42,059 nt of DNA from Escherichia phage HHU8: sequence record PQ641135; one strand, given 5' to 3'. Below, piece after piece: positions 7 to 41,751 of the stretch. The position numbers and the translations under genes are program-made. The notes under the pieces are model-generated. The model was not told the origin of the DNA. It ran no database searches and saw only the letters and a program-made list of their open reading frames with translations. Each line of letters opens with the position of its first letter. Position 1 is the first letter of the stretch.

Positions 7-2337
7 TTATCCAAGGTACTGCACAGAGTGTAGGCGTGCCCCGTCGGATACGTAGCAGTTCTCAATTGGTGTTGTACCAGCAGGTATAGTCACTGAAGCG
101 GTACCAACCTGCACAGCTATGGATTTATTCTGGTTGAACGTTATAGTGCAGTCGTACTGACCAGCAGTAACACCCGGAGCAATGTTGTACACAGTGCCAC
201 GGTAGTTAACGTCTAACGCGCCACCCAGCGATGCCAGTGTAATTGTAAGCGCAGTAGAATGGTTAATATCTACCAGCGTCAGAAGCGTACCTGCTGAAGA
301 TGCGTTCAACACGCAGCGCAGCACTGCACCAGCACACAACAGTGGGCGGTTACGTACCTGATTTGCTGCTGTCATACCGGGCTGTACAATCTCACGCGGA
401 ATCAAGCCAACACCAGAGTAGCCGAAGTCTGTACCAGCACCACCCATATCTGAAGTAGCCAGAATAGAGATTACCTGAAGACCAGCGTACAGCTGACACA
501 CCGTTGGTATGTACTGCGCGTCATAGTCAATAGGTATGGCTGTGCCTTGGTCTAAGCCGCCACTGAGCTGGGTACTCAGCAGGTTGCCGCTCAGCCCGAC
601 ACAGCACACAGAACCTGTACCCCACTGTGGCCCGTAGACCGCCAGCACCGTATCGTCGGTCGGGTTGTCCAGAATAACCGCGTGGTTCACACCAGTAGCA
701 GATGCCTGACGGCGGCCAGTAAGACCACCCCCGAAGCGTGAGCCACTTACGTAGTAGCTGCGGTTCAGCGAGATGTTGTCGAAGTACGTCGAGTTGGCCA
801 ACCCTGCCTTATCCCACGGCTTGTACAGCACATGCGCACACACAAGCGGGATAGCCAAGTTGCGGCCCATCTGAGCATACATCAGCGTTGATGGGTGCGC
901 ACCGTCCGGCACCTGCGTGTTAGGCGAGATGTAGCGTGCAGTCTTCTCTGCGTAGTAGTAGTTATCCACTAGGTCGCAGTTCATGGCGTGAGCCACCTCG
1001 CGCATAACCTGCACGTAGTCGCGCAGACGCTTGGACTTGGCTTCGTCAATGATTTGGTACGTAGTGATGCATGGGTTAAGGTTTGGCGTCACAAGGATTG
1101 GCACCTTACCGTACTTGCGCACTGTCTCGACGAACGTTACCACGTTGAGGCGGTACTGCTCAATGCTGTTAGCCAGCTGGCTATCGTTAATGCAGTGGTT
1201 GCAGTAAACGATATTAGCAGACGAGCTGGCCATCTTAGCTTCGAATGTAGAGCCTGAGCCATCGGTACCAGCCAACATCTGAGCCATAGTAGTACCTGAG
1301 ATGCCCTTGTTGTTGACGGTGTTAGCCATACCATAAAGGTTGGTCAACGTCAGACTGAGCACAGCTGGCTGGTTGTTTGGGTCTTGCACGCCAACGTTGA
1401 TTGTAGTGGCACCCCACATAGTGGAGTCACCGTGGCAGTCGATTACCACAGGAGTACCAGCAGCCAGTTGACGGGCGTAATAGGACGCTTTGCGGTACGT
1501 CGGATACTTGAGCTTAGCTACGTCAGCTGACACTGCGCTAACTGAGTCTGCGCTAGCAGCGCCGCCAACCAGCGTATAGCCAGTAGGAGCAGCCAATTCT
1601 TCACGCAGCGACACGTCATGCAGGGGTACCCATGCGCCAGCACTGATACCGCCTGTGGTAGCTGGAGAGCTGCCCAGCGGAACCGTCTTAGGCAATGCCC
1701 CGGCCCACTTGTACTGCTGCCCATTAGCCCGATACAGCACTGTGCGGTTAGCTACAGTGATAGTCGTGCCCGCCTCGAAAGTGCCAATCAGCACACACCC
1801 GGCTTCACGGGCGTCGCGGTAATGCAGCTCGTCCACACTGAGGTTGGTCTTAGCCAGCTCTGCCGCTACACCAGCAGCAGAATCAGTGTCTGGCAGCAGC
1901 ACCTGTGGGTTACCTTCGCTGTCGAAGCCCAGATACTTGCCAGCACGCTCAGCCACGCTAGGGATTAGCGCAATCTCTGGGTCGGAGTCCGGCACGCGAA
2001 GGGTGCGGCCACGGGCATAGTCCGTCAGGTCTGAGTATTCTTGGAAGGCATACAGCAGCTGGTCGAAGTCAGCATCCAAGTTCTGTCCGGTAAACGCAGC
2101 GCCCTGTCCAAACCTGTAGCGCAGCAGGACTGATGTCAAGCGGCGAAGCATGATGGAAGTGCCCGCGTCTGGCGCACCAACGAACGTCACAGTTTTGGCT
2201 ACTATGTCAATCGTGTAGCCAGTGGTCACAATCACGTTATTGAGGCGTACCTCGACCGAGCTGGAGTCCAGCTGGTCGAAGGTATACGTGTATGTGGTTG
2301 TGCTACCATCTGCAATATACAGGTTGTAGCTTGTCAT
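7..2337 (-). CDS. tail fiber / tailspike protein: T7 gp17-like N-terminal adaptor plus central SGNH (GDSL-type) hydrolase domain
   Basis: 776-aa ORF; ATG at 2335-2337 preceded by AGGAG; stop TAA at 7-9. The N-terminal ~150 aa resemble podovirus tail-fiber adaptor regions. Residues ~295-500 carry all four SGNH blocks: GDS (HGDSTMWG), G (NKGISGTT), xND (HCINDS), DxxH (DGAHPS). Last gene of the structural module. Confidence 0.8.
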   Translation of the reverse strand: MTSYNLYIADGSTTTYTYTFDQLDSSSVEVRLNNVIVTTGYTIDIVAKTVTFVGAPDAGTSIMLRRLTSVLLRYRFGQGAAFTGQNLDADFDQLLYAFQEYSDLTDYARGRTLRVPDSDPEIALIPSVAERAGKYLGFDSEGNPQVLLPDTDSAAGVAAELAKTNLSVDELHYRDAREAGCVLIGTFEAGTTITVANRTVLYRANGQQYKWAGALPKTVPLGSSPATTGGISAGAWVPLHDVSLREELAAPTGYTLVGGAASADSVSAVSADVAKLKYPTYRKASYYARQLAAGTPVVIDCHGDSTMWGATTINVGVQDPNNQPAVLSLTLTNLYGMANTVNNKGISGTTMAQMLAGTDGSGSTFEAKMASSSANIVYCNHCINDSQLANSIEQYRLNVVTFVETVRKYGKVPILVTPNLNPCITTYQIIDEAKSKRLRDYVQVMREVAHAMNCDLVDNYYYAEKTARYISPNTQVPDGAHPSTLMYAQMGRNLAIPLVCAHVLYKPWDKAGLANSTYFDNISLNRSYYVSGSRFGGGLTGRRQASATGVNHAVILDNPTDDTVLAVYGPQWGTGSVCCVGLSGNLLSTQLSGGLDQGTAIPIDYDAQYIPTVCQLYAGLQVISILATSDMGGAGTDFGYSGVGLIPREIVQPGMTAANQVRNRPLLCAGAVLRCVLNASSAGTLLTLVDINHSTALTITLASLGGALDVNYRGTVYNIAPGVTAGQYDCTITFNQNKSIAVQVGTASVTIPAGTTPIENCYVSDGARLHSVQYLG

Positions 2338-11323: not shown

Positions 11324-11929
11324 TTATCCTCCCCGCGCCGACTCATAGCGCCGCCAGCTCTGACGCTGACGGGCATTGAACTTTCTCTGACGTATGTGCA
11401 TACTCTGACATTGCTGTAGTGCAATAGCATACCCCGTGGCGACGCTGGCAGGGGCATTGTCGCCCACGTCATCCGCATACGCCATCATAGCTGCTTGATA
11501 AGCAATCATTCTTTGTACAGCGTTAGGCAGGTCATCCCAATCTACGTCATATGTAACTAAGCCCGGAACATCCTCAGTAAAAACAAAGGATTTGGCCTTT
11601 GCGTTGTAAAGATACCCACCTCGCGTGATACATTCGAAACCATCAGGTACGAACGCCAGCGCGTCTGCGGGATATGGGACACGTCCATCGCTCTCACGGT
11701 TGACCGTGATACGGATGTTGTTGAACCACCACCCCTCGTTGAGAACGGCCTGCCGAGACTCATCAATCTTGTCTAACGCAAGCGTTACCGATGGGTGTCG
11801 TATTTCCGTAGAGGATACGGTGTGTTCAGATAGTGCCCGAAGAACAATGTTAACTGCTTCGAGTAAAGTCATAGAACCCCCAGTGATAATCATAGAAGCC
11901 CCTCTTGCGAAGGGCTTCGAGTTTACCAT
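11324..11929 (-). CDS. tail tubular protein A (T7 gp11-like)
   Basis: 201-aa ORF between capsid and tail tubular B; ATG at 11927-11929 overlaps the capsid stop. Call based on size and synteny. Confidence 0.65.
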   Translation of the reverse strand: MVNSKPFARGASMIITGGSMTLLEAVNIVLRALSEHTVSSTEIRHPSVTLALDKIDESRQAVLNEGWWFNNIRITVNRESDGRVPYPADALAFVPDGFECITRGGYLYNAKAKSFVFTEDVPGLVTYDVDWDDLPNAVQRMIAYQAAMMAYADDVGDNAPASVATGYAIALQQCQSMHIRQRKFNARQRQSWRRYESARGG

Positions 11930-12921
11930 TAGGTCTCGGTAGTGACGACTGCCACCACGTCTGGACGACGCTGGCCCACGGTGTACATGTGGAAGCTATC
12001 CAGAACGTTGGTCAGTTCACGTTCGTCATCCCATACGCGGTTGAACAGCGGCTGGGCTTCGACAGTGACCAGAGCCAGAGACGGGTCGAAGATAATCATC
12101 TTGCGCTGAATCTCGTCGGCAGTGACGTTGAAGTCAGGGCCGAGGATGTGGTCAGTGATTGCCGCCTGCGGGAACGCGTTGCTCTCGATGATACGGATAC
12201 CGTTCACGTAAGCCACACGGCGCATTGCGAAGTCGTTGACACCACGGCCACCAGTGAACTCAACGTTCATCAGTTTCTTGTGCTCCAGCAGAATGCTGAA
12301 CCACGCCGGGTCAATCAGCGTAACCAGACGGCCAAGGTCAGCGTCGCGGCGAATGAACGCCTCGATAGCTTTCTTGTGGCCATGTACCAGCGCAGACGCG
12401 TCATCTTCCTCAGATGCCACGGTGCCAGTCAGAGTGACCTGCTCCTTGATACCTGCGTTGAACGCGCCAGCCAGAGAAGCCGGAGGCACGAAGTCAGCAG
12501 ACTTCTGGAGCTGGATGACGTGCGCTTGGTCGAACGCCTTAGCCTGAGCAGTGCCCATGTTACGGGTCAGCTCGGCACGGAAGTCCGGCGCAGTCCAGTC
12601 GTCCTGATAGTCAATCGGGATACGGATGTAGGACACGGTATCCACAGTGACAATCAGTTTCTCAGAGCGAACAGGCTGGTTGTCCAGCGCCTCGCCAGAG
12701 CGACGACCTTTAACAGTCACGGAGCCGAGACGGTCGCCACGCCAAGTGTTGGACTGGTTAGCCACAGACTTGAAGTTGGTCAGACCGGAACGGAAGATGG
12801 AGTTGTAAATGAACTGGGTCTGCACGTCACGGTCATACACCTCAAGGTGAATGTCGTTGTCAGAGTTCGCGCCACCCCAGTGTGGACGGAACTGGTTCGG
12901 GGTATAAGCGTTATCAGCCAT
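11929..12921 (-). CDS. major capsid protein (T7 gp10-like)
   Basis: 330-aa ORF following the scaffolding gene; ATG at 12919-12921 preceded by AAGGA. Size and position fit the T7-like major capsid protein. Confidence 0.75.
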   Translation of the reverse strand: MADNAYTPNQFRPHWGGANSDNDIHLEVYDRDVQTQFIYNSIFRSGLTNFKSVANQSNTWRGDRLGSVTVKGRRSGEALDNQPVRSEKLIVTVDTVSYIRIPIDYQDDWTAPDFRAELTRNMGTAQAKAFDQAHVIQLQKSADFVPPASLAGAFNAGIKEQVTLTGTVASEEDDASALVHGHKKAIEAFIRRDADLGRLVTLIDPAWFSILLEHKKLMNVEFTGGRGVNDFAMRRVAYVNGIRIIESNAFPQAAITDHILGPDFNVTADEIQRKMIIFDPSLALVTVEAQPLFNRVWDDERELTNVLDSFHMYTVGQRRPDVVAVVTTET

Positions 12922-32145: not shown

Positions 32146-32298
32146 TTAATACCTCACTAAATAATATTCCCAGTGCATGAAGTGGCCGCCGAGATACACG
32201 GCATGGCTCACCAGATTAGGGTTGCTTGCCCCACCCAGCGCACAGTAACCAGCGTAGGTTAACTGATTGGCGTGAGCATTATATGTGCTGCCGCCCAT
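32146..32298 (-). CDS. small hypothetical protein (50 aa), below the ORF-track length cutoff
   Basis: My own translation: ATG at 32296-32298 preceded by GGAGGT with ~6-nt spacing; 50 codons (MGGSTYNAHANQLTYAGYCALGGASNPNLVSHAVYLGGHFMHWEYYLVRY) ending at TAA 32146-32148, directly upstream of the next gene's start. Confidence 0.3.
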   Translation of the reverse strand: MGGSTYNAHANQLTYAGYCALGGASNPNLVSHAVYLGGHFMHWEYYLVRY

Positions 32299-32355
32299 AC
32301 TTACCTCCATCGTTTGATAATGACACTGCCCCCGGCACGCAGAGGCAGTAGCTTA

Positions 32356-32601
32356 TCACACTTCGATGGTGCCAGCCAGTTCATACGGGCCGAAGCAATT
32401 GATGACAGCTTGCGACTTGACATGCGTGCGGTTAGCTTCGAAGCCTGCACGCTTGGTGGTTGCGATGCGCTGCACATCAGCCAGTGTCTCAGCCGCCGCG
32501 CCGTTCATTGCAATCACATCGACCGGAGCTACAATCTGCTGCCCTTCCGGTACGATAGTCCAGTCACCCTCGCCGTCTTTGTATACGTCATACTTAGCCA
32601 T
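32356..32601 (-). CDS. hypothetical protein
   Basis: 81-aa ORF; ATG at 32599-32601 with GAGAGG upstream. Confidence 0.45.
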   Translation of the reverse strand: MAKYDVYKDGEGDWTIVPEGQQIVAPVDVIAMNGAAAETLADVQRIATTKRAGFEANRTHVKSQAVINCFGPYELAGTIEV

Positions 32602-32659
32602 GTTTGCCTCTCGTTTATTTGATAGTGGTACAGCCCCTGCAAGCAGAGGCTATAGATTA

Positions 32660-32911
32660 TTACTCGACGAACTTGAATGACTTACCTTCATGGTAGTCAA
32701 TGTGTGCGCTAGCTAAGTCACCCACTTCATCACGGAAACTGACCGAGCGCTTGTCAACTTCATCCCCTTCGGCGTCCACTTCGCCCGGTTCGAGGATGAG
32801 TACATCGTACTCTTTACCCTCAACGGTATCGAGGAACGGACAGAAGGTGCCGAACGGAGTAGGACGGCCACAGTCGTTGCGCAGAATTACAATCTTAGCT
32901 TGAGTGCTCAT
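32660..32911 (-). CDS. hypothetical acidic protein
   Basis: 83 aa from the ATG at 32909-32911 (GAGGT upstream); acidic stretch EPGEVDAEGDEVD. Confidence 0.45.
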   Translation of the reverse strand: MSTQAKIVILRNDCGRPTPFGTFCPFLDTVEGKEYDVLILEPGEVDAEGDEVDKRSVSFRDEVGDLASAHIDYHEGKSFKFVE

Positions 32912-36556: not shown

Positions 36557-37014
36557 AGTTATTTCTCCAGTTGTTGGCTATTTTCAGGTGGATAGTGAAC
36601 CCATTGTGACGCGCCGTACAGTCTGCACTCGTTGGCATTGATTGGCTTGTCGGATTCACTACCCTGAAAAATCGCCCCGCCCATTTCGCGCTGTGAGTAT
36701 TGTCTTCACTCACTCTCAGGAGTCTTCCAGCAGTCCGGCTCACCGTCACCAGCTTATGCCTACCTACCCGCTATACTCCGCGCCTTATAAGACGTTTGGG
36801 ATTGTGCTGATACTGCGCTGCGTCTATCGCGCTTCTCCGTTCCCTTGCATCGGGCGCTACCCCTACGGCGTTAGCATTGTTGCGATACCGTTGCCTTTCG
36901 GCGATGCCTCACCCAGTTCCAACCTGCGGCGGATACCCAGTGAGCCGTGACACTACGCGGCCAGTTTGCGTTCACTCAGAGCAGGATGCTTTCCATCCTT
37001 TCAACTCGGTGCTG

Positions 37015-37043
37015 ATTACAACACAGTGTATTCAGCTTGTCAA
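37015..37043 (-). promoter_or_regulatory. sigma70-type early promoter P3 (TTGACA - 17 bp - TGTAAT)
   Basis: Minus strand TTGACA (37038-37043), 17-nt spacer, TGTAAT (37015-37020) with TGT upstream; third tandem copy. Confidence 0.6.
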
Positions 37044-37083
37044 CTACTTTTTACTTCTGACTGACTGGCTTACTGCCTGTCAA

Positions 37084-37112
37084 TCTGGTGTGTATTACAG
37101 CATACTCGTTCC
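37084..37112 (-). promoter_or_regulatory. sigma70-type early promoter P2 (TTGACA - 17 bp - TGTAAT)
   Basis: Minus strand TTGACA (37107-37112), 17-nt spacer, TGTAAT (37084-37089) with TGC upstream; same architecture as P1. Confidence 0.6.
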
Positions 37113-37229
37113 ATCCTGTCAACCGATTTAATCAGCGCCCGTTCTGAGATGATTAGACCGTACCAGTTTGCCTGCGTGGGTTTTAACGTCTTTATCCATG
37201 ACTGTTTGGCTTGCTGGTTGACTGGAAGC

Positions 37230-37258
37230 ATTACAGCATAGTGAGTTTGCCTTGTCAA
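37230..37258 (-). promoter_or_regulatory. sigma70-type early promoter P1 (TTGACA - 17 bp - TGTAAT)
   Basis: On the minus strand: TTGACA (plus coordinates 37253-37258), exact 17-nt spacer, TGTAAT (37230-37235), with TGC immediately upstream of the -10 hexamer (extended -10-like). Points toward the early genes. Confidence 0.6.
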
Positions 37259-37330
37259 CACACCAGATTGTTAAAGAGCAGTGTTACCGTTCAATCTTGT
37301 CTACTGGGCTAGTGCCTTTCGACGTGATGA

Positions 37331-37519: not shown

Positions 37520-37960
37520 GATACGCAGAGCGAGCGCGGCGCAGCCGAAACAAGCGAGCGCGGAACGTCAACGGATGGAATCCGACAGGATGACAGGCGG
37601 CAGACAGTGAACGCAGTAGGACAGTAGACAGAGTGTAACAGCAGGTAGCAGAGCATGACGCGCAGAGCTGGAGGCGCAGACAGTAGACCAGCAGACAGGA
37701 CAGCACCACGCAGCACCACGCCGCGCCACGAAAAGAGACAGATACCCGCCCGACCACAGGCAGCACGCAGCACCGCGCAGCCAGCGCAGAGCGTCCCCAT
37801 AGGACAGCACCGCACAGCACAGCCAGCAGGACAGCACCGCGCCGAGTGATGAAACGCGACACGCACGAGCTATACCGCACGCAGGCAATCCTCTTGACGC
37901 GCCGCGCAGCGCACGCGAGCAATTATCGCGCACGTCGCGAGGCTAAACCGCGCACACGCT
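37520..37960. repeat. thymine-depleted, short-repeat-rich non-coding tract (candidate terminal-repeat / concatemer-junction region)
   Basis: About 440 bp in which the plus strand is nearly devoid of T and is built from degenerate short repeats (AGGACAGCACC at 37697, 37800 and 37828; GACAGTAGAC at 37625 and 37681; many ACGCAG/CAGCAC units). No credible ORF; lies between the last gene (endolysin) and the early promoters. Confidence 0.5.
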
Positions 37961-38072: not shown

Positions 38073-38609
38073 CTACAGCGTCGCACAGTAAGCGCTACAG
38101 CGTTTTGCACGGGCAACCAAGGCATCCCTATAGCGAACCACTGTCGGGGCTGTAGAAGCCTTTAGGAACGCAATACGAAGGTCACAGATGGCTGCTGCTG
38201 CGGAGTGAGGTTCCAGACGTTTGGCTGCTGCCACGGTAGCAGGGCCAATAACCCCGTCTTGTGCAACACCGCATACCCGCTGTAGAGCTTTCGCAGCACG
38301 GGAGACGCCGGAGTTGACGCCGTAATCAAACACGGCACATGCAATCGCAGGGTGAAGCTCGTCACCTCTGATGGGGCTGTAGTAGTCCCGGCGATAGATT
38401 GCCTCGGCTTGCTCTTTGGTGAGCTGCTTGATAGGCACACACACAGTGCCGCCAAGCCCAGTAGGGACACCACAAGCTCTACCATCCAGCTTCCCATCAC
38501 GAGCGTCACTAATTCCATGGTTGGTCTCCCCTCCAGTGTCACCGGGCAGCTTGGTGTACCCACCCTCGGCCAGCCCGGTGAACTTCATACAGATTTCAAA
38601 GTTAGTCAT
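38073..38609 (-). CDS. endolysin: glycoside hydrolase family 108-like N-terminal domain plus PG_binding_3-like C-terminal domain
   Basis: 178-aa ORF; N-terminal GLAEGGYTKLPGDTGGETNHGI fits the GH108 lysozyme motif pattern (EGGY...D.GG.T..GI), and the C-terminal GVAQDGVIGPATVAAAKR fits a peptidoglycan-binding domain. No signal peptide, so holin-dependent. ATG at 38607-38609 overlaps the upstream stop (TAATG). Confidence 0.75.
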   Translation of the reverse strand: MTNFEICMKFTGLAEGGYTKLPGDTGGETNHGISDARDGKLDGRACGVPTGLGGTVCVPIKQLTKEQAEAIYRRDYYSPIRGDELHPAIACAVFDYGVNSGVSRAAKALQRVCGVAQDGVIGPATVAAAKRLEPHSAAAAICDLRIAFLKASTAPTVVRYRDALVARAKRCSAYCATL

Positions 38610-38992
38610 TACATCCCCATAATCGTTGTGATAAAGGACTGGAGCGCCGTGAGGTCGCCAGCCTTGACCGCAAGATAGATACCGCTAACGAGTGAAGCGG
38701 TCAGGAGACACCACTTGACGGCGTGAGCCGCGTAAGAGAGTAGCTTACCGATGTGGCTCATAGTCTTTTGAATGTCCTGAATTTGCTCGACGACACGGAG
38801 CTGCTGCTGAATCTCCAGCCACCGGGAGTCGTTCTCCGATAGCTTGGCCAGCATAGCAGCGTCACCTTTTTCCAGCGATGCGATTTGCAGTTCGTGTTTG
38901 TCGAGGCGAGTTTCTACGGATTGCATACGAGCCTCCACAGCGCCCATACGCGAGTGGATGTTAGGAGCTGGCTCCTTCTTTGCTTCCGTCAT
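38609..38992 (-). CDS. membrane protein with N-terminal coiled coil and single C-terminal transmembrane helix; candidate atypical holin
   Basis: 127-aa ORF; ATG at 38990-38992 with GAAGGTGA upstream; heptad-like N-terminal ~90 aa, hydrophobic stretch AVKWCLLTASLVSGIYLAV near the C-terminus. Embedded in the lysis cassette, overlapping the end of the lipoprotein gene. Confidence 0.45.
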   Translation of the reverse strand: MTEAKKEPAPNIHSRMGAVEARMQSVETRLDKHELQIASLEKGDAAMLAKLSENDSRWLEIQQQLRVVEQIQDIQKTMSHIGKLLSYAAHAVKWCLLTASLVSGIYLAVKAGDLTALQSFITTIMGM

Positions 38993-39449
38993 CTTTCACC
39001 TTCTTCTTCCACGGAGATGGTACAAACCACATCACCAGACCTAAGATACAAGTAAGGCCCATGCCAAATGCCCACAGGAGACTGCGTGGGTCGCTCTGAG
39101 AGACAACAATAGTCTTAGCCTGCACGTTTCCATTGGTAATCTGCGAACCCTGCTTAGAAGCGTTTACAGAGCCTCCTGTGACATTCTTCACAGTCGTCGA
39201 ATCACTACCCTGTTTAGCGGTATCCACTTGCGCGTTACCAGATACGTCACCGACCTTCGTTTCGTCGGACTGTTTCGCAGTCAAGCCGATGCCTTGTTTC
39301 GTGTTCTCTGCGCCAACCTGTGCCGTTAGTTCCGGCTTATTGGGAGAGACAGCCGAGGTTACAGCAGACAGTGCGCTTGTTGCGGAGCAGCCCGTCAAAG
39401 TCAAGGACAGTGACAGGACTGCCCCGGCCATAAGCCGAGACAGTTTCAT
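38961..39449 (-). CDS. lipoprotein with C-terminal transmembrane helix; candidate unimolecular spanin
   Basis: 162-aa ORF; N-terminal signal with lipobox (LSLSLTLTG-C-SA), polar Ser/Thr/Gln-rich middle, C-terminal hydrophobic helix (LLWAFGMGLTCILGLVMWFV) then a basic tail. This is the architecture of a u-spanin such as phage T1 gp11. ATG at 39447-39449 with AAGGGG upstream. Confidence 0.5.
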   Translation of the reverse strand: MKLSRLMAGAVLSLSLTLTGCSATSALSAVTSAVSPNKPELTAQVGAENTKQGIGLTAKQSDETKVGDVSGNAQVDTAKQGSDSTTVKNVTGGSVNASKQGSQITNGNVQAKTIVVSQSDPRSLLWAFGMGLTCILGLVMWFVPSPWKKKVKDDGSKEGASS

Positions 39450-39458
39450 ATTGACCCC

Positions 39459-39644
39459 TTAGTTGGTCAGTGCAGTGAGGGCGTTCGACACGCGGGTAAC
39501 AAAGGTCTGGTAGTAAGCCACCAGCGCAGTGTTGGTCGTGTCGAAGTAACCGTCCTCAACCCAAACGTTCAGATACTTGGCCGCCATATTACAGGCTGCC
39601 ACGAACTCCGCACGTTCAGCAGCGGTAGAGTCAACAAGTGCCAT
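39459..39644 (-). CDS. hypothetical protein
   Basis: 61-aa ORF; ATG at 39642-39644 with AAGGAGA upstream; no hydrophobic segment. Confidence 0.4.
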   Translation of the reverse strand: MALVDSTAAERAEFVAACNMAAKYLNVWVEDGYFDTTNTALVAYYQTFVTRVSNALTALTN

Positions 39645-39826
39645 AAAGATTCTCCTTAAGAGAGTGTGATGCCAGTGATTGCACCAGCGGAAATAGCGAA
39701 GGTCGCGGTGTCGGTGTACGTGCCAGTGACCGGGATGGTCAGTGCATCACCGTTATCCACCATAGCCACAGTAGCGCCGTCCTCCAGCAGAGCGGAACCT
39801 TCCGGCGTACCCGCGTAACCAGCAGC

Positions 39827-39991
39827 CTAAAGTACCACCACCAGATTTGTGATGGCAGTTTCAATGTCAGCAGCCTGAGCTGCCGTCACTGTACGGGTAC
39901 CATTGATGAAGCGTTGAGTCACGTTAGCTGCGATACCACAGCGATAACCAAGCTCGTAACGCTGAGCATCAGTGATGGTGGTGATGGACAT
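39827..39991 (-). CDS. hypothetical small protein; reading frame continues 57 codons past its TAG stop
   Basis: 54 aa from the ATG at 39989-39991 (GGAGAA upstream; ATG overlaps the terminase stop as TAATG). Its TAG at 39827-39829 is followed in frame by an open stretch down to TAA at 39656-39658. Confidence 0.35.
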   Translation of the reverse strand: MSITTITDAQRYELGYRCGIAANVTQRFINGTRTVTAAQAADIETAITNLVVVL

Positions 39992-41751
39992 TATTTGATT
40001 CTCCGTCGCGTGCCGCGCACAGGTTTGTGGCTGCGCCACTTCGAGTCGTCGTAACCCATCGGGTTGGCAAGGAACTCTCGTGCAGCAGCAGTCTCACGCT
40101 TGGCGGCTTCTTCATGTTCGTCCTGCTGTAGCACCTCAGCGTGCAGGTACACGGCAGCAGACAGGGTTTCAATGCGGTCGTCGTGGGGGATGGATTGACG
40201 GTCTTGTGTCAGGTTCTGGAGCTGCCAGAACAGACTGAACTCACGACCACCGTTATTCATGCCCCGGCACAGCCGCAGGTCTTCTTCAACAACACACCAA
40301 TGCACAACGACACGGTGGCGCTGCATGATTGGGCCGAGGCGGTTGATGATACGCACCTCTTTCTGACCGGACGAGTACACGCCATCACAGCCAATGGTCA
40401 AGCTCTGACGCTTAACCTCACCTCGGTACATGTTGGTCACGGTGCCGTGGCCCATGTTATCCTCAATGACCAGTCGCTTAACCCCGGTTTCAGCAAGCCA
40501 CTCTACCGCCGCCTTGATGTTTTCCTCCGTCTGACCGCCGTGGTAGACGTGCATACCGATGACGTGGATAAACGGGCCGACAGAAGCGGTGGCAATGATA
40601 ACTGATTCGTCCGACCCACCACCAGCAGGGTCAAGAAACGCCGAGGTATTTTCGAATGGTACATAAGTGTCCGAGAAATCAGCAGCCAAGAATAGCTGAG
40701 CGCGAGCCAGTGGGAAATCCAATGGCAGCTCGGCGGCATGGCGCGGGTGGTTCGACCAATGCAGAACCTCCGGCGCAGACTGCGTAGAGCCGTGGAAGAA
40801 GATTAAGTCTTTGAGATGTAACGTCTGTTTGAGCGCATCCGACAGCGACGTGTCCAGCATGAACTGCAACTGGAAGCCTGCCTGCTGGTAGTCTCGTTCG
40901 TTCTGCAACTGCTTCTCTTCGGAGTAGCGTTGCGGGTCAGTCTGTGCGCCACGGTTCCCAAGGATACCGTACCCAGTACGCAGTTCAGGGTGGCCATCCA
41001 TCTTCTGCTTAATCCACGGGGCCAGACAGCCGCCGTAGCGTTCTTCTTCCTCAACCGTTGGGAAACGACCGGGCCAGATGCGAACGTCGAAGCCACGCTG
41101 CGGGAGCGTGTTGTAGATGGAGTCCTGAGTCTGCGGTGTACCAAGGTACAGAATCTCTGCACCATCATTGGCGATAGCCGCGAACTCTTTGGTCAGAGTG
41201 TTGATACGGGCGCGGTTGGCAGGAGAGCTACCGTTACTGGTAGTCTCCACGTCATCGGCAATCAACAGCGATACGTGGTTCCCCTGCAACTGGCCGAAGA
41301 TACCAACTGCTTTGACAGAGGGCTGTTTGTCAGGAATACGAAATGCGTGGTGTACGTCGAAACCGTCCGTATAGGAGGTACGTGCGCCAGCGCGAGTTTC
41401 AGGGCGCAGCCATTCCAGTCTGTCCCATTGCATAATGGCAGACACGATGGCGTGCGAGAGCGTACCCGCATAGTCGTCAGAACCAGATACCAGCAGCACA
41501 GTGGCGTTAGGCATCTGGATGAACTCATACAGAGCACGGGCAATGCCGATGGTGGACTTAGCCTCACCGCGCTGAGCCATGACGCACTTGTTCTTTAGCG
41601 TCCGGTCGGCCATGTAGCGGCCAATATCGAGCTGCATTTCAGTGAGGTCAAAGCCCAGCCATGCGAAGTAGTCATGCAGGAACAGCGGGAAGTTGTTCTC
41701 GTAGTGGGCGCGAACAATTCCTGCCATCACCATGCGGCGTTGTAAATCCAT
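39991..41751 (-). CDS. terminase large subunit (T7 gp19-like)
   Basis: 586-aa ORF, the same length as T7 gp19; N-terminal region resembles T7-group terminases; follows the small-terminase gene with a TAATG overlap. Confidence 0.85.
   Translation of the reverse strand: MDLQRRMVMAGIVRAHYENNFPLFLHDYFAWLGFDLTEMQLDIGRYMADRTLKNKCVMAQRGEAKSTIGIARALYEFIQMPNATVLLVSGSDDYAGTLSHAIVSAIMQWDRLEWLRPETRAGARTSYTDGFDVHHAFRIPDKQPSVKAVGIFGQLQGNHVSLLIADDVETTSNGSSPANRARINTLTKEFAAIANDGAEILYLGTPQTQDSIYNTLPQRGFDVRIWPGRFPTVEEEERYGGCLAPWIKQKMDGHPELRTGYGILGNRGAQTDPQRYSEEKQLQNERDYQQAGFQLQFMLDTSLSDALKQTLHLKDLIFFHGSTQSAPEVLHWSNHPRHAAELPLDFPLARAQLFLAADFSDTYVPFENTSAFLDPAGGGSDESVIIATASVGPFIHVIGMHVYHGGQTEENIKAAVEWLAETGVKRLVIEDNMGHGTVTNMYRGEVKRQSLTIGCDGVYSSGQKEVRIINRLGPIMQRHRVVVHWCVVEEDLRLCRGMNNGGREFSLFWQLQNLTQDRQSIPHDDRIETLSAAVYLHAEVLQQDEHEEAAKRETAAAREFLANPMGYDDSKWRSHKPVRGTRRRIK

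Follow-up and report, generated by a model that had tools for sequence, protein, structure and literature searches.

An in-frame TAG codon within an alpha-paw-type decoration protein gene of Escherichia phage HHU8

The locus downstream of TerL and its counterparts in related phages

The window analyzed in this work, i.e., the whole stretch of 42,059 nucleotides, represents an approximately complete, circularly permuted genome of a Bonnellvirus (phiKMV-like, Autographiviridae), with a GC content of 55% and all of its genes on the minus strand. It is related to J8-65, mellemsur, megetsur, BHUENT7, and Kc261, with a DNA identity of 85-97% over most of its length. The gene order at the locus of interest is TerL (ORF 39991..41751), a gene split by an in-frame TAG, a 61-aa paralogue, a u-spanin gene (PHROG 1804, E = 5e-37), and the endolysin gene. 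The TAA stop of TerL (39993-39991, minus strand) overlaps the ATG of the split gene (39991-39989) as TAATG, and a GGAG motif (40004-40001, minus strand) is located 9 nt 5' of this ATG. The features of the locus are the following:

39830..39991, minus strand: upstream half of the split gene, 54 sense codons, MSITTITDAQRYELGYRCGIAANVTQRFINGTRTVTAAQAADIETAITNLVVVL; predicted N-terminal helix-turn-helix (alpha-claw motif) of an alpha-paw-type decoration protein
39827..39829, minus strand: in-frame TAG, codon 55, placed by the DNA and protein alignments
39659..39826, minus strand: downstream half of the split gene, 56 sense codons, AAGYAGTPEGSALLEDGATVAMVDNGDALTIPVTGTYTDTATFAISAGAITGITLS; linker plus the last forearm module of about 40 aa
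39768..39776, minus strand: deletion junction, 9-bp microhomology CGCTACTGT, placed by alignments to the 226-aa relatives
39834..39837, minus strand: A52V (GCG->GTG, 39837) and A53V (GCA->GTA, 39834), private and non-synonymous
39900, minus strand: D31G (GAT->GGT), private; located where the clip loop joining the two helices starts
39459..39644, minus strand: intact 61-aa ORF, putative alpha-claw paralogue, directly 3' of the split gene

The downstream frame closes at a TAA (39658-39656, minus strand) that overlaps the AAGGAG Shine-Dalgarno sequence of the next gene (ATG at 39644). An earlier, sequence-only reading of this DNA had placed the ATG at 39991, the TAG at 39827-39829, and the TAA at 39656-39658, coinciding with the Shine-Dalgarno sequence of the next gene; read on the minus strand, all of these positions are right. 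The same reading described a further 57 open codons after the TAG; the frame is indeed open, and it contains 56 sense codons, 57 being reached only if the TAA is counted.

The relatives harbor a single ORF after TerL, whose length is 226 aa in mellemsur, Kc261, BHUENT7, usur, RZ4, megetsur, and Lidtsur, 222-223 aa in glasur, aldrigsur, J8-65, and smaasur, and 102 aa in Pantoea phage ROV85. The two halves of the window gene align to the N- and C-termini of this single protein; the downstream frame shares 97-100% protein identity with its C-terminus, and the last 36 codons differ from Kc261 by one amino acid. The check proposed together with the sequence-only reading, i.e., whether the position of the TAG is a sense codon in relatives, gave a positive answer for 12 out of 12 isolates. 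In the protein alignment the column contains Glu in ten of the 12 relatives, Ala in one, and Val in one, and in the DNA alignment the codon is GAG in all six close relatives, one base different from that of the window (GTG GTG GTA CTT TAG GCT in the window vs. GTG GCG GCA CTT GAG GC. in the close relatives).

Single-ORF members of the family are also located beside TerL in more distant phages, that is, LIMEzero ORF51 (150 aa), PP16 gp53 (136 aa), PhiM1_48 (179 aa), and a homologue of 180 aa in a Klebsiella phage. Among 5.8 billion proteins searched, 96 clusters (135-331 aa) were retrieved, and in 43 of them the N-domain is joined to between one and four C-modules of about 40 aa each. In IMG/VR, a query with the family alignment (a single 75-aa query had yielded no confirmed loci) retrieved 27 loci; all 12 with an N-domain have it together with the C-module in one stop-free segment, the window alone being split. 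According to these alignments, the two frames represent the halves of one ancestral gene, which is uninterrupted in every relative examined.

Some other regions of the window also differ from those of its relatives. The tailspike (776 aa; 7-2337, minus strand) is unlike that of any Bonnellvirus relative, and nothing in the phage collection matches it at the DNA level; its N-terminal region of about 270 aa is the only part matching the mellemsur colanidase spike (33% identity). The domains recognized are a T7 tail-fibre N-terminus, Tail_spike_N, and an SGNH/GDSL esterase, and the best match is the tail spike of Pectobacterium phage PP99 (42% identity). These features point to a receptor-binding module that was swapped in, probably a polysaccharide deacetylase, and to a different host. 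The mellemsur_21 gene, a 62-aa ORF lying between the genes for the major capsid protein and tail tubular protein A, is absent, with a gap of about 57 nt in the window at 11872-11932, and mellemsur_2 has no orthologue in the window (early region around 32150-32660); small accessory ORFs are variably present within Bonnellvirus. The non-coding stretch of about 1.5 kb between the endolysin and the early genes (features at 36990-37260 and 37640-37850) contains three tandem repeats of about 30 nt, which on the coding strand read as sigma70-type promoters (GTTGACA-17 nt-TGTAAT), like the early promoters A1-A3 of T7. The same stretch embeds short, imperfect GC-rich repeats (GCACCACGCAGCAC...), such as typify the end or the terminal-repeat region of T7-like genomes, and the many long "ORFs" listed in it are spurious.

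Relationship with the alpha-paw and alpha-claw proteins of PhiM1

In Pectobacterium phage PhiM1, the two decoration proteins alpha-claw and alpha-paw form homodimeric helix-turn-helix bundles ("alpha-claw motifs"); the former consists of the motif only, and the latter of the motif plus a long flexible forearm, which was not resolved and is possibly involved in adhesion (PMC11440229). The alpha-paw homodimer sits at the quasi-2-fold axes of the T=7 capsid, as determined by cryo-EM; a role of the clip loop has been described as well, the alpha-paw-type loop being associated with weaker binding and different capsid sites (PMC11440229).

The profile of the 27-member family matched PDB 8VB0_J, the "Alpha-paw decoration protein (gp43)" of PhiM1, with E = 1.3e-47 (E = 3e-32 for domain 1), and its N-terminal part matched 8VB0_H, "Alpha-claw (gp44)", a protein of 62 aa identical to PhiM1_47, with E = 6e-4. 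Each half of the window gene could also be recognized: the upstream one by PHROG 9732 (E = 2.9e-6) and by the N-domain HMM (E = 5.5e-25), the downstream one, by itself, by residues 139-179 of 8VB0_J, i.e., the last module (E = 1e-5), and by the C-module HMM (E = 4e-28). The forearm modules of the family end in ...TGTYT.TVTF.V..G.ITGI.LS, and such a module is present in the window as the downstream frame. Pfam gave nothing significant for the two halves, the fused protein, or the neighboring 61-aa ORF. Probing the PDB with the 54-aa sequence alone retrieved no meaningful match and did not reach 8VB0, the family profile being required; the 61-aa ORF alone did not retrieve any match either.

The AF2 model of a full-length relative (P0004) consists of a helix (residues 8-31), a loop (32-36), a second helix (37-56), a linker, and beta modules, with a mean pLDDT of 75.6 (about 90 for the N-domain and 46-89 for the forearm). 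The best PDB matches of its N-domain in Foldseek were chains N, J, K, and H of 8VB0, with TM scores of 0.72-0.79 (0.79 for 8VB0_J); the forearm part, modeled with low-to-moderate confidence, gave no informative Foldseek match. The TAG (codon 55) falls at the end of helix 2, so that the 54-aa product stops short of the last two residues predicted for this helix. The modeled part of the alpha-paw chain J in 8VB0 is 55 residues long.

On the basis of these profile and fold matches, the split gene is assigned as the Bonnellvirus orthologue of the PhiM1 alpha-paw decoration gene, and its upstream half is predicted, by homology to PhiM1, to be the capsid-binding and dimerization domain. PhiM1 gp43 and the window gene share the family, the N-terminal alpha-claw motif of about 46-55 residues, and the C-terminal modules of about 40 aa; moreover, both genes lie between TerL and a u-spanin/holin/endolysin cassette, with a small alpha-claw paralogue alongside. 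They differ in that the window gene has a TAG at the boundary between motif and forearm, and a forearm cut to one module. The order of the two genes is also reversed, with paw then claw in Bonnellvirus and claw then paw in PhiM1, and capsid binding in Bonnellvirus is predicted. In the window, motif and forearm are not encoded as one uninterrupted polypeptide (TAG at 39829-39827). Since the window gene is split and those of the relatives are not, the locus should be regarded as a nonsense allele of the alpha-paw family and not as an intact member of it.

The 61-aa ORF located directly after the split gene shows the same two-helix layout, and its family starts with MAL..STAAER.E.... Aligning this family with the alpha-paw N-domain family by hhalign gave a probability of 96.2% (E = 2.6e-9, 57 columns), and the family did not align significantly with PhiM1 alpha-claw taken as one sequence (probability 2%); thus, the connection to alpha-claw goes via the alpha-paw N-domain family, for which hhalign against alpha-claw gave 89.7% (E = 1.8e-6) and Foldseek a TM of 0.72. 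A second small N-domain-like ORF is present at every related locus, upstream of the alpha-paw gene in PhiM1/PP16-like phages and downstream of it in Bonnellvirus, LIMEzero, and the Klebsiella phages. Labelled "hypothetical" in all relatives, the 61-aa ORF most likely encodes the alpha-claw-type decoration protein of Bonnellvirus. A similarity that is structural only links the family with the decoration protein of the Shigella podophage HRP29 (8ELD_H), likewise a small helical clip sitting on the capsid of a podophage (Foldseek probability 0.98, TM 0.80, rmsd 2.1 A over 57 columns, 24% identity).

The decoration genes are followed by a lysis cassette in three parts (38609-39449, minus strand). 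It comprises a unimolecular spanin of 162 aa, bearing a lipobox (LTGC) and, at its C-terminal end, a transmembrane segment, matching PHROG 1804 as "Rz-like spanin" and variously labelled Rz1A or Rz-like in relatives; a 127-aa coiled-coil protein in the holin position, which overlaps the spanin and has a C-terminal transmembrane segment (phrog_35530); and an endolysin of 178 aa, whose stop codon is TAG. In GenBank, homologues of the split gene (PP16 gp53, PPWS2, Peat1) are labelled "putative Rz-like lysis protein" or "type VII integral membrane protein", a mis-annotation presumably due to the adjoining lysis cassette. The CB5 paper treats the gene only as a conserved hypothetical protein, and no functional data for it were found in the literature on LIMEzero and on Bonnellvirus proteomics.

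The forearm module of about 40 aa is also found fused to unrelated N-terminal domains, such as DUF1737 in P0017; P0014, P0016, and others likewise carry it on other N-termini. Moreover, it weakly matches (E = 0.007) a 104-aa "minor structural protein" (PDB 9S9B, chain m). It looks like a mobile surface-fibre module common to phage structural proteins.

Forearm deletion and origin of the TAG codon

Compared to the 226-aa relatives, the window lacks 118 internal codons, in frame, and with them the internal forearm modules, only one module being left; accordingly, a 901-nt query from the window covers about 1255 nt in the relatives. The sequence CGCTACTGT, located at 39776-39768 in the window, is present at both ends of the deleted block in the relatives, which indicates an in-frame, repeat-mediated deletion. 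The forearm deletion of ROV85 has a different junction and is independent. The junction of the window had zero exact matches in the viral, metagenome, and genome contig collections.

The TAG goes back to one substitution, G->T on the coding strand, which is private to the window genome. In total, 12 private substitutions occur in the 336 nt of the locus, six synonymous and six non-synonymous: I4T, D31G, A52V, A53V, E55*, and three synonymous changes are found upstream of or at the stop, V96A and three synonymous ones downstream of it. A53 is invariant in the 27 diverse family members, and position 31 is D or N in 11 of the 12 relatives. Against close relatives, the pairwise dN/dS amounts to 0.08-0.27 in the part downstream of the TAG and to 0.10-0.23 in the upstream part. 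On the branch leading to the window, the N-domain accumulated five non-synonymous vs. three synonymous changes (P = 0.03 under the family dN/dS of 0.12), and downstream of the stop one change out of four is non-synonymous, fewer than under neutrality (P = 0.07); the contrast between the window and its relatives (five non-synonymous and 15 synonymous) is not significant (Fisher p = 0.25). The N-domain changes, including A53V, fit a relaxed or altered constraint on the window copy in a suggestive but weak way, and pseudogenization of the N-domain is not claimed, given the overall Fisher test. Gene conversion was considered for the clustered substitutions and rejected, the search for an internal donor having matched only the site itself. 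The downstream remnant has no further stops or frameshifts and no sign of decay; this, in turn, would imply that the TAG is recent, or an error, or that the remnant is still translated, the counts being too small to separate these cases.

In our opinion, the probable explanation is that a private GAG->TAG change truncates the alpha-paw gene to approximately its capsid-binding motif, as an ordinary mutation and not as a programmed signal. Among the origins proposed in the sequence-only reading, the mutational one is thus supported. We can depict the following succession of events. The starting point would be a single protein like that of the relatives (102-226 aa), whose residues ~8-56 form a dimerizing helix-turn-helix that, by homology to PhiM1, would clip across neighboring major-capsid subunits at the quasi-2-fold axes, and whose remainder would be a flexible fibre, the forearm, of one to four modules of about 40 aa. 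The forearm would have shrunk first, or would have been shrinking already, through the in-frame loss of 118 codons between two CGCTACTGT repeats; then, one G->T change would have turned Glu55 (GAG) into TAG, two residues short of the predicted end of helix 2. Ribosomes terminating there would produce a 54-aa protein, roughly the capsid-binding motif alone, and the remnant of 56 codons would go untranslated, save for background amber read-through.

This product would be close in size and design to the 62-aa alpha-claw, and also to the 55 ordered residues of alpha-paw in the cryo-EM structure. Like PhiM1 gp44, it would consist of the helix-turn-helix motif only; the natural alpha-claw ends about 4-7 residues past the aligned position of the window TAG. 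It differs from gp44 in deriving from the truncation of an alpha-paw and not from a dedicated gene, and in having an alpha-paw-type clip loop. The 54-aa fragment may still bind the capsid, and any one of A52V, A53V, D31G, and the missing end of helix 2 might impair this predicted binding; the most likely consequence would be a "bald" clip-only protein, either on the capsid or absent from it. The loss of the forearm would be tolerated since this would be an accessory appendage of the adhesion type. Fibrous or Ig-like decorations of the head that are dispensable, and that are thought to act in adhesion rather than in assembly, are represented by T4 Hoc, T5 pb10, N4 gp17, and phi29 gp8.5 (PMC11440229). 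Their tolerated loss is in line with a complete phage genome carrying a nonsense/deletion allele, although they differ from alpha-paw in having unrelated folds and in being located at hexamer centres rather than at 2-fold axes.

The first alternative is a sequencing or assembly error, the true codon being GAG or another sense codon and the product an intact 110-aa alpha-paw with a short forearm. A single-base change is involved and the TAG allele was found nowhere else: the allele (with N at the first base of the codon) had zero exact matches in viral, metagenome, and genome contigs. No exact copies of the 54-aa product, of its 61-aa neighbor, or of TerL are on record in public assemblies, where no independent assembly was found. 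In addition, the downstream frame is perfectly kept, with a low dN/dS and private changes in a 3:1 synonymous to non-synonymous ratio, and three private substitutions in 9 nt (39837, 39834, 39829) could mark a poor local consensus. However, three of 12 substitutions would fall within 9 nt by chance 24% of the time, and the 12 changes in 336 nt, half of them synonymous, indicate a genuinely diverged region. None of the other ~45 orthologous genes is broken or shortened, so the assembly is clean elsewhere, and substitution errors are rare in consensus assemblies. An error therefore appears rather unlikely, and less probable than a private amber substitution; we infer that the TAG is real.

A second alternative is a functional leaky stop, decoded in part by an amber suppressor of the host (such as a supE-type tRNA) or a near-cognate tRNA, with a major 54-aa and a minor full-length product. 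The TAG lies exactly at a domain boundary and the frame after it is intact, with no decay. Minor C-terminally extended capsid isoforms also occur in other phages: Qbeta A1 arises via UGA read-through and T7 gp10B via a -1 frameshift, both being programmed extensions of capsid proteins. The likeness is that a capsid-associated protein is concerned and that the extension past the stop would be a surface-exposed accessory domain. The signals of Qbeta and T7 are conserved within their lineages, in defined contexts; unlike them, the stop of the window is confined to a single genome and is accompanied by no stimulatory context, no structure, and no suppressor tRNA. A stop at this position was found in none of the 12 isolates, the 12 IMG/VR loci, and the 43 protein clusters. 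ARAGORN detected no tRNA or tmRNA gene in the whole window, hence no phage-borne suppressor; the 93-nt fold after the TAG was no better than those of shuffled sequences (z = +0.38), and Rfam had no match there at E <= 1.

Moreover, five ordinary genes have TAG as their normal stop, those for the endolysin and the SAMase among them, and in mellemsur these stops occupy the same positions. When the 48 annotated mellemsur proteins were mapped to the window, about 46 orthologues were obtained, with an internal stop in the split gene only; together, these two observations exclude a genome-wide reassignment of TAG. As to a possible adaptation to an amber-suppressor host, also proposed in the sequence-only reading, an internal TAG occurs in only one of the approximately 46 genes. 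A mixed population of claw-only and claw-plus-fibre proteins does exist in PhiM1, in a 5:2 ratio (PMC11440229). However, the intact 61-aa ORF adjoins the split gene, so the phage retains a dedicated claw gene and has no obvious need for a second claw-only product. On these grounds the programmed amber read-through suggested in the sequence-only reading is quite unlikely, a functional leaky stop in general is improbable, and the more specific possibility of a real TAG that is leaky in the natural host, yielding abundant claw-only clips and rare forearm clips from one gene, is decidedly improbable. In a weaker version of the latter possibility, the locus would represent a snapshot of the birth of a short alpha-claw gene from an alpha-paw gene by a single stop gain, accompanied by D31G, A52V, and A53V as adaptive changes.

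A third alternative foresees two products, with re-initiation after the TAG at a GTG (39769) releasing a free forearm module of 37 aa. The GTG ORF (39656..39769) is open and a GGAGGA (39785-39780) is located 10 nt upstream, but this motif merely encodes the conserved L-E-D-G, the deletion having brought the GTG beside it, and the spacing is longer than optimal. The arrangement occurs in no relative, and a 37-aa module lacking the capsid-binding domain has no evident function; we consider this scenario very improbable.

Lastly, the downstream frame might be a random stop-free stretch unrelated to the upstream gene: base composition gives a probability of about 0.10 for 56 open codons, and 9-14% of stop-to-stop segments are that long. 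Since such a length is unremarkable, the question had to be decided by homology, and chance, also contemplated in the sequence-only reading, is refuted by the correspondence of both halves to one continuous gene in all relatives; the identity with the relatives' C-terminus and the match with the PhiM1 module, i.e., the conserved C-terminal module of the same family, leave it a practically negligible probability.

Significance for the decoration genes of Bonnellvirus and related phages

As a candidate for recoding, the locus carries little weight, since what it contains is an accessory gene with a nonsense mutation private to this genome, or possibly with a base-call error. If the TAG were leaky, it would be a newly arisen read-through means of setting the claw:paw stoichiometry, for which PhiM1 uses two genes.

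The analysis assigns a predicted function, alpha-paw plus alpha-claw, to a gene pair labelled "hypothetical", "Rz-like", or "type VII integral membrane protein", and this annotation would extend to Bonnellvirus, Waewaevirus, Kotilavirus, Phimunavirus, and the KP34-like Klebsiella phages. The forearm appears as a modular repeat, which grows and shrinks as short repeats lying in register recombine with each other. Should the TAG be real and the phage viable, the genome would be a natural forearm knockout, the experiment that the authors of the PhiM1 study set as future work (PMC11440229). A real TAG, together with the independent deletion in ROV85, would argue that the forearm is dispensable and evolutionarily labile.
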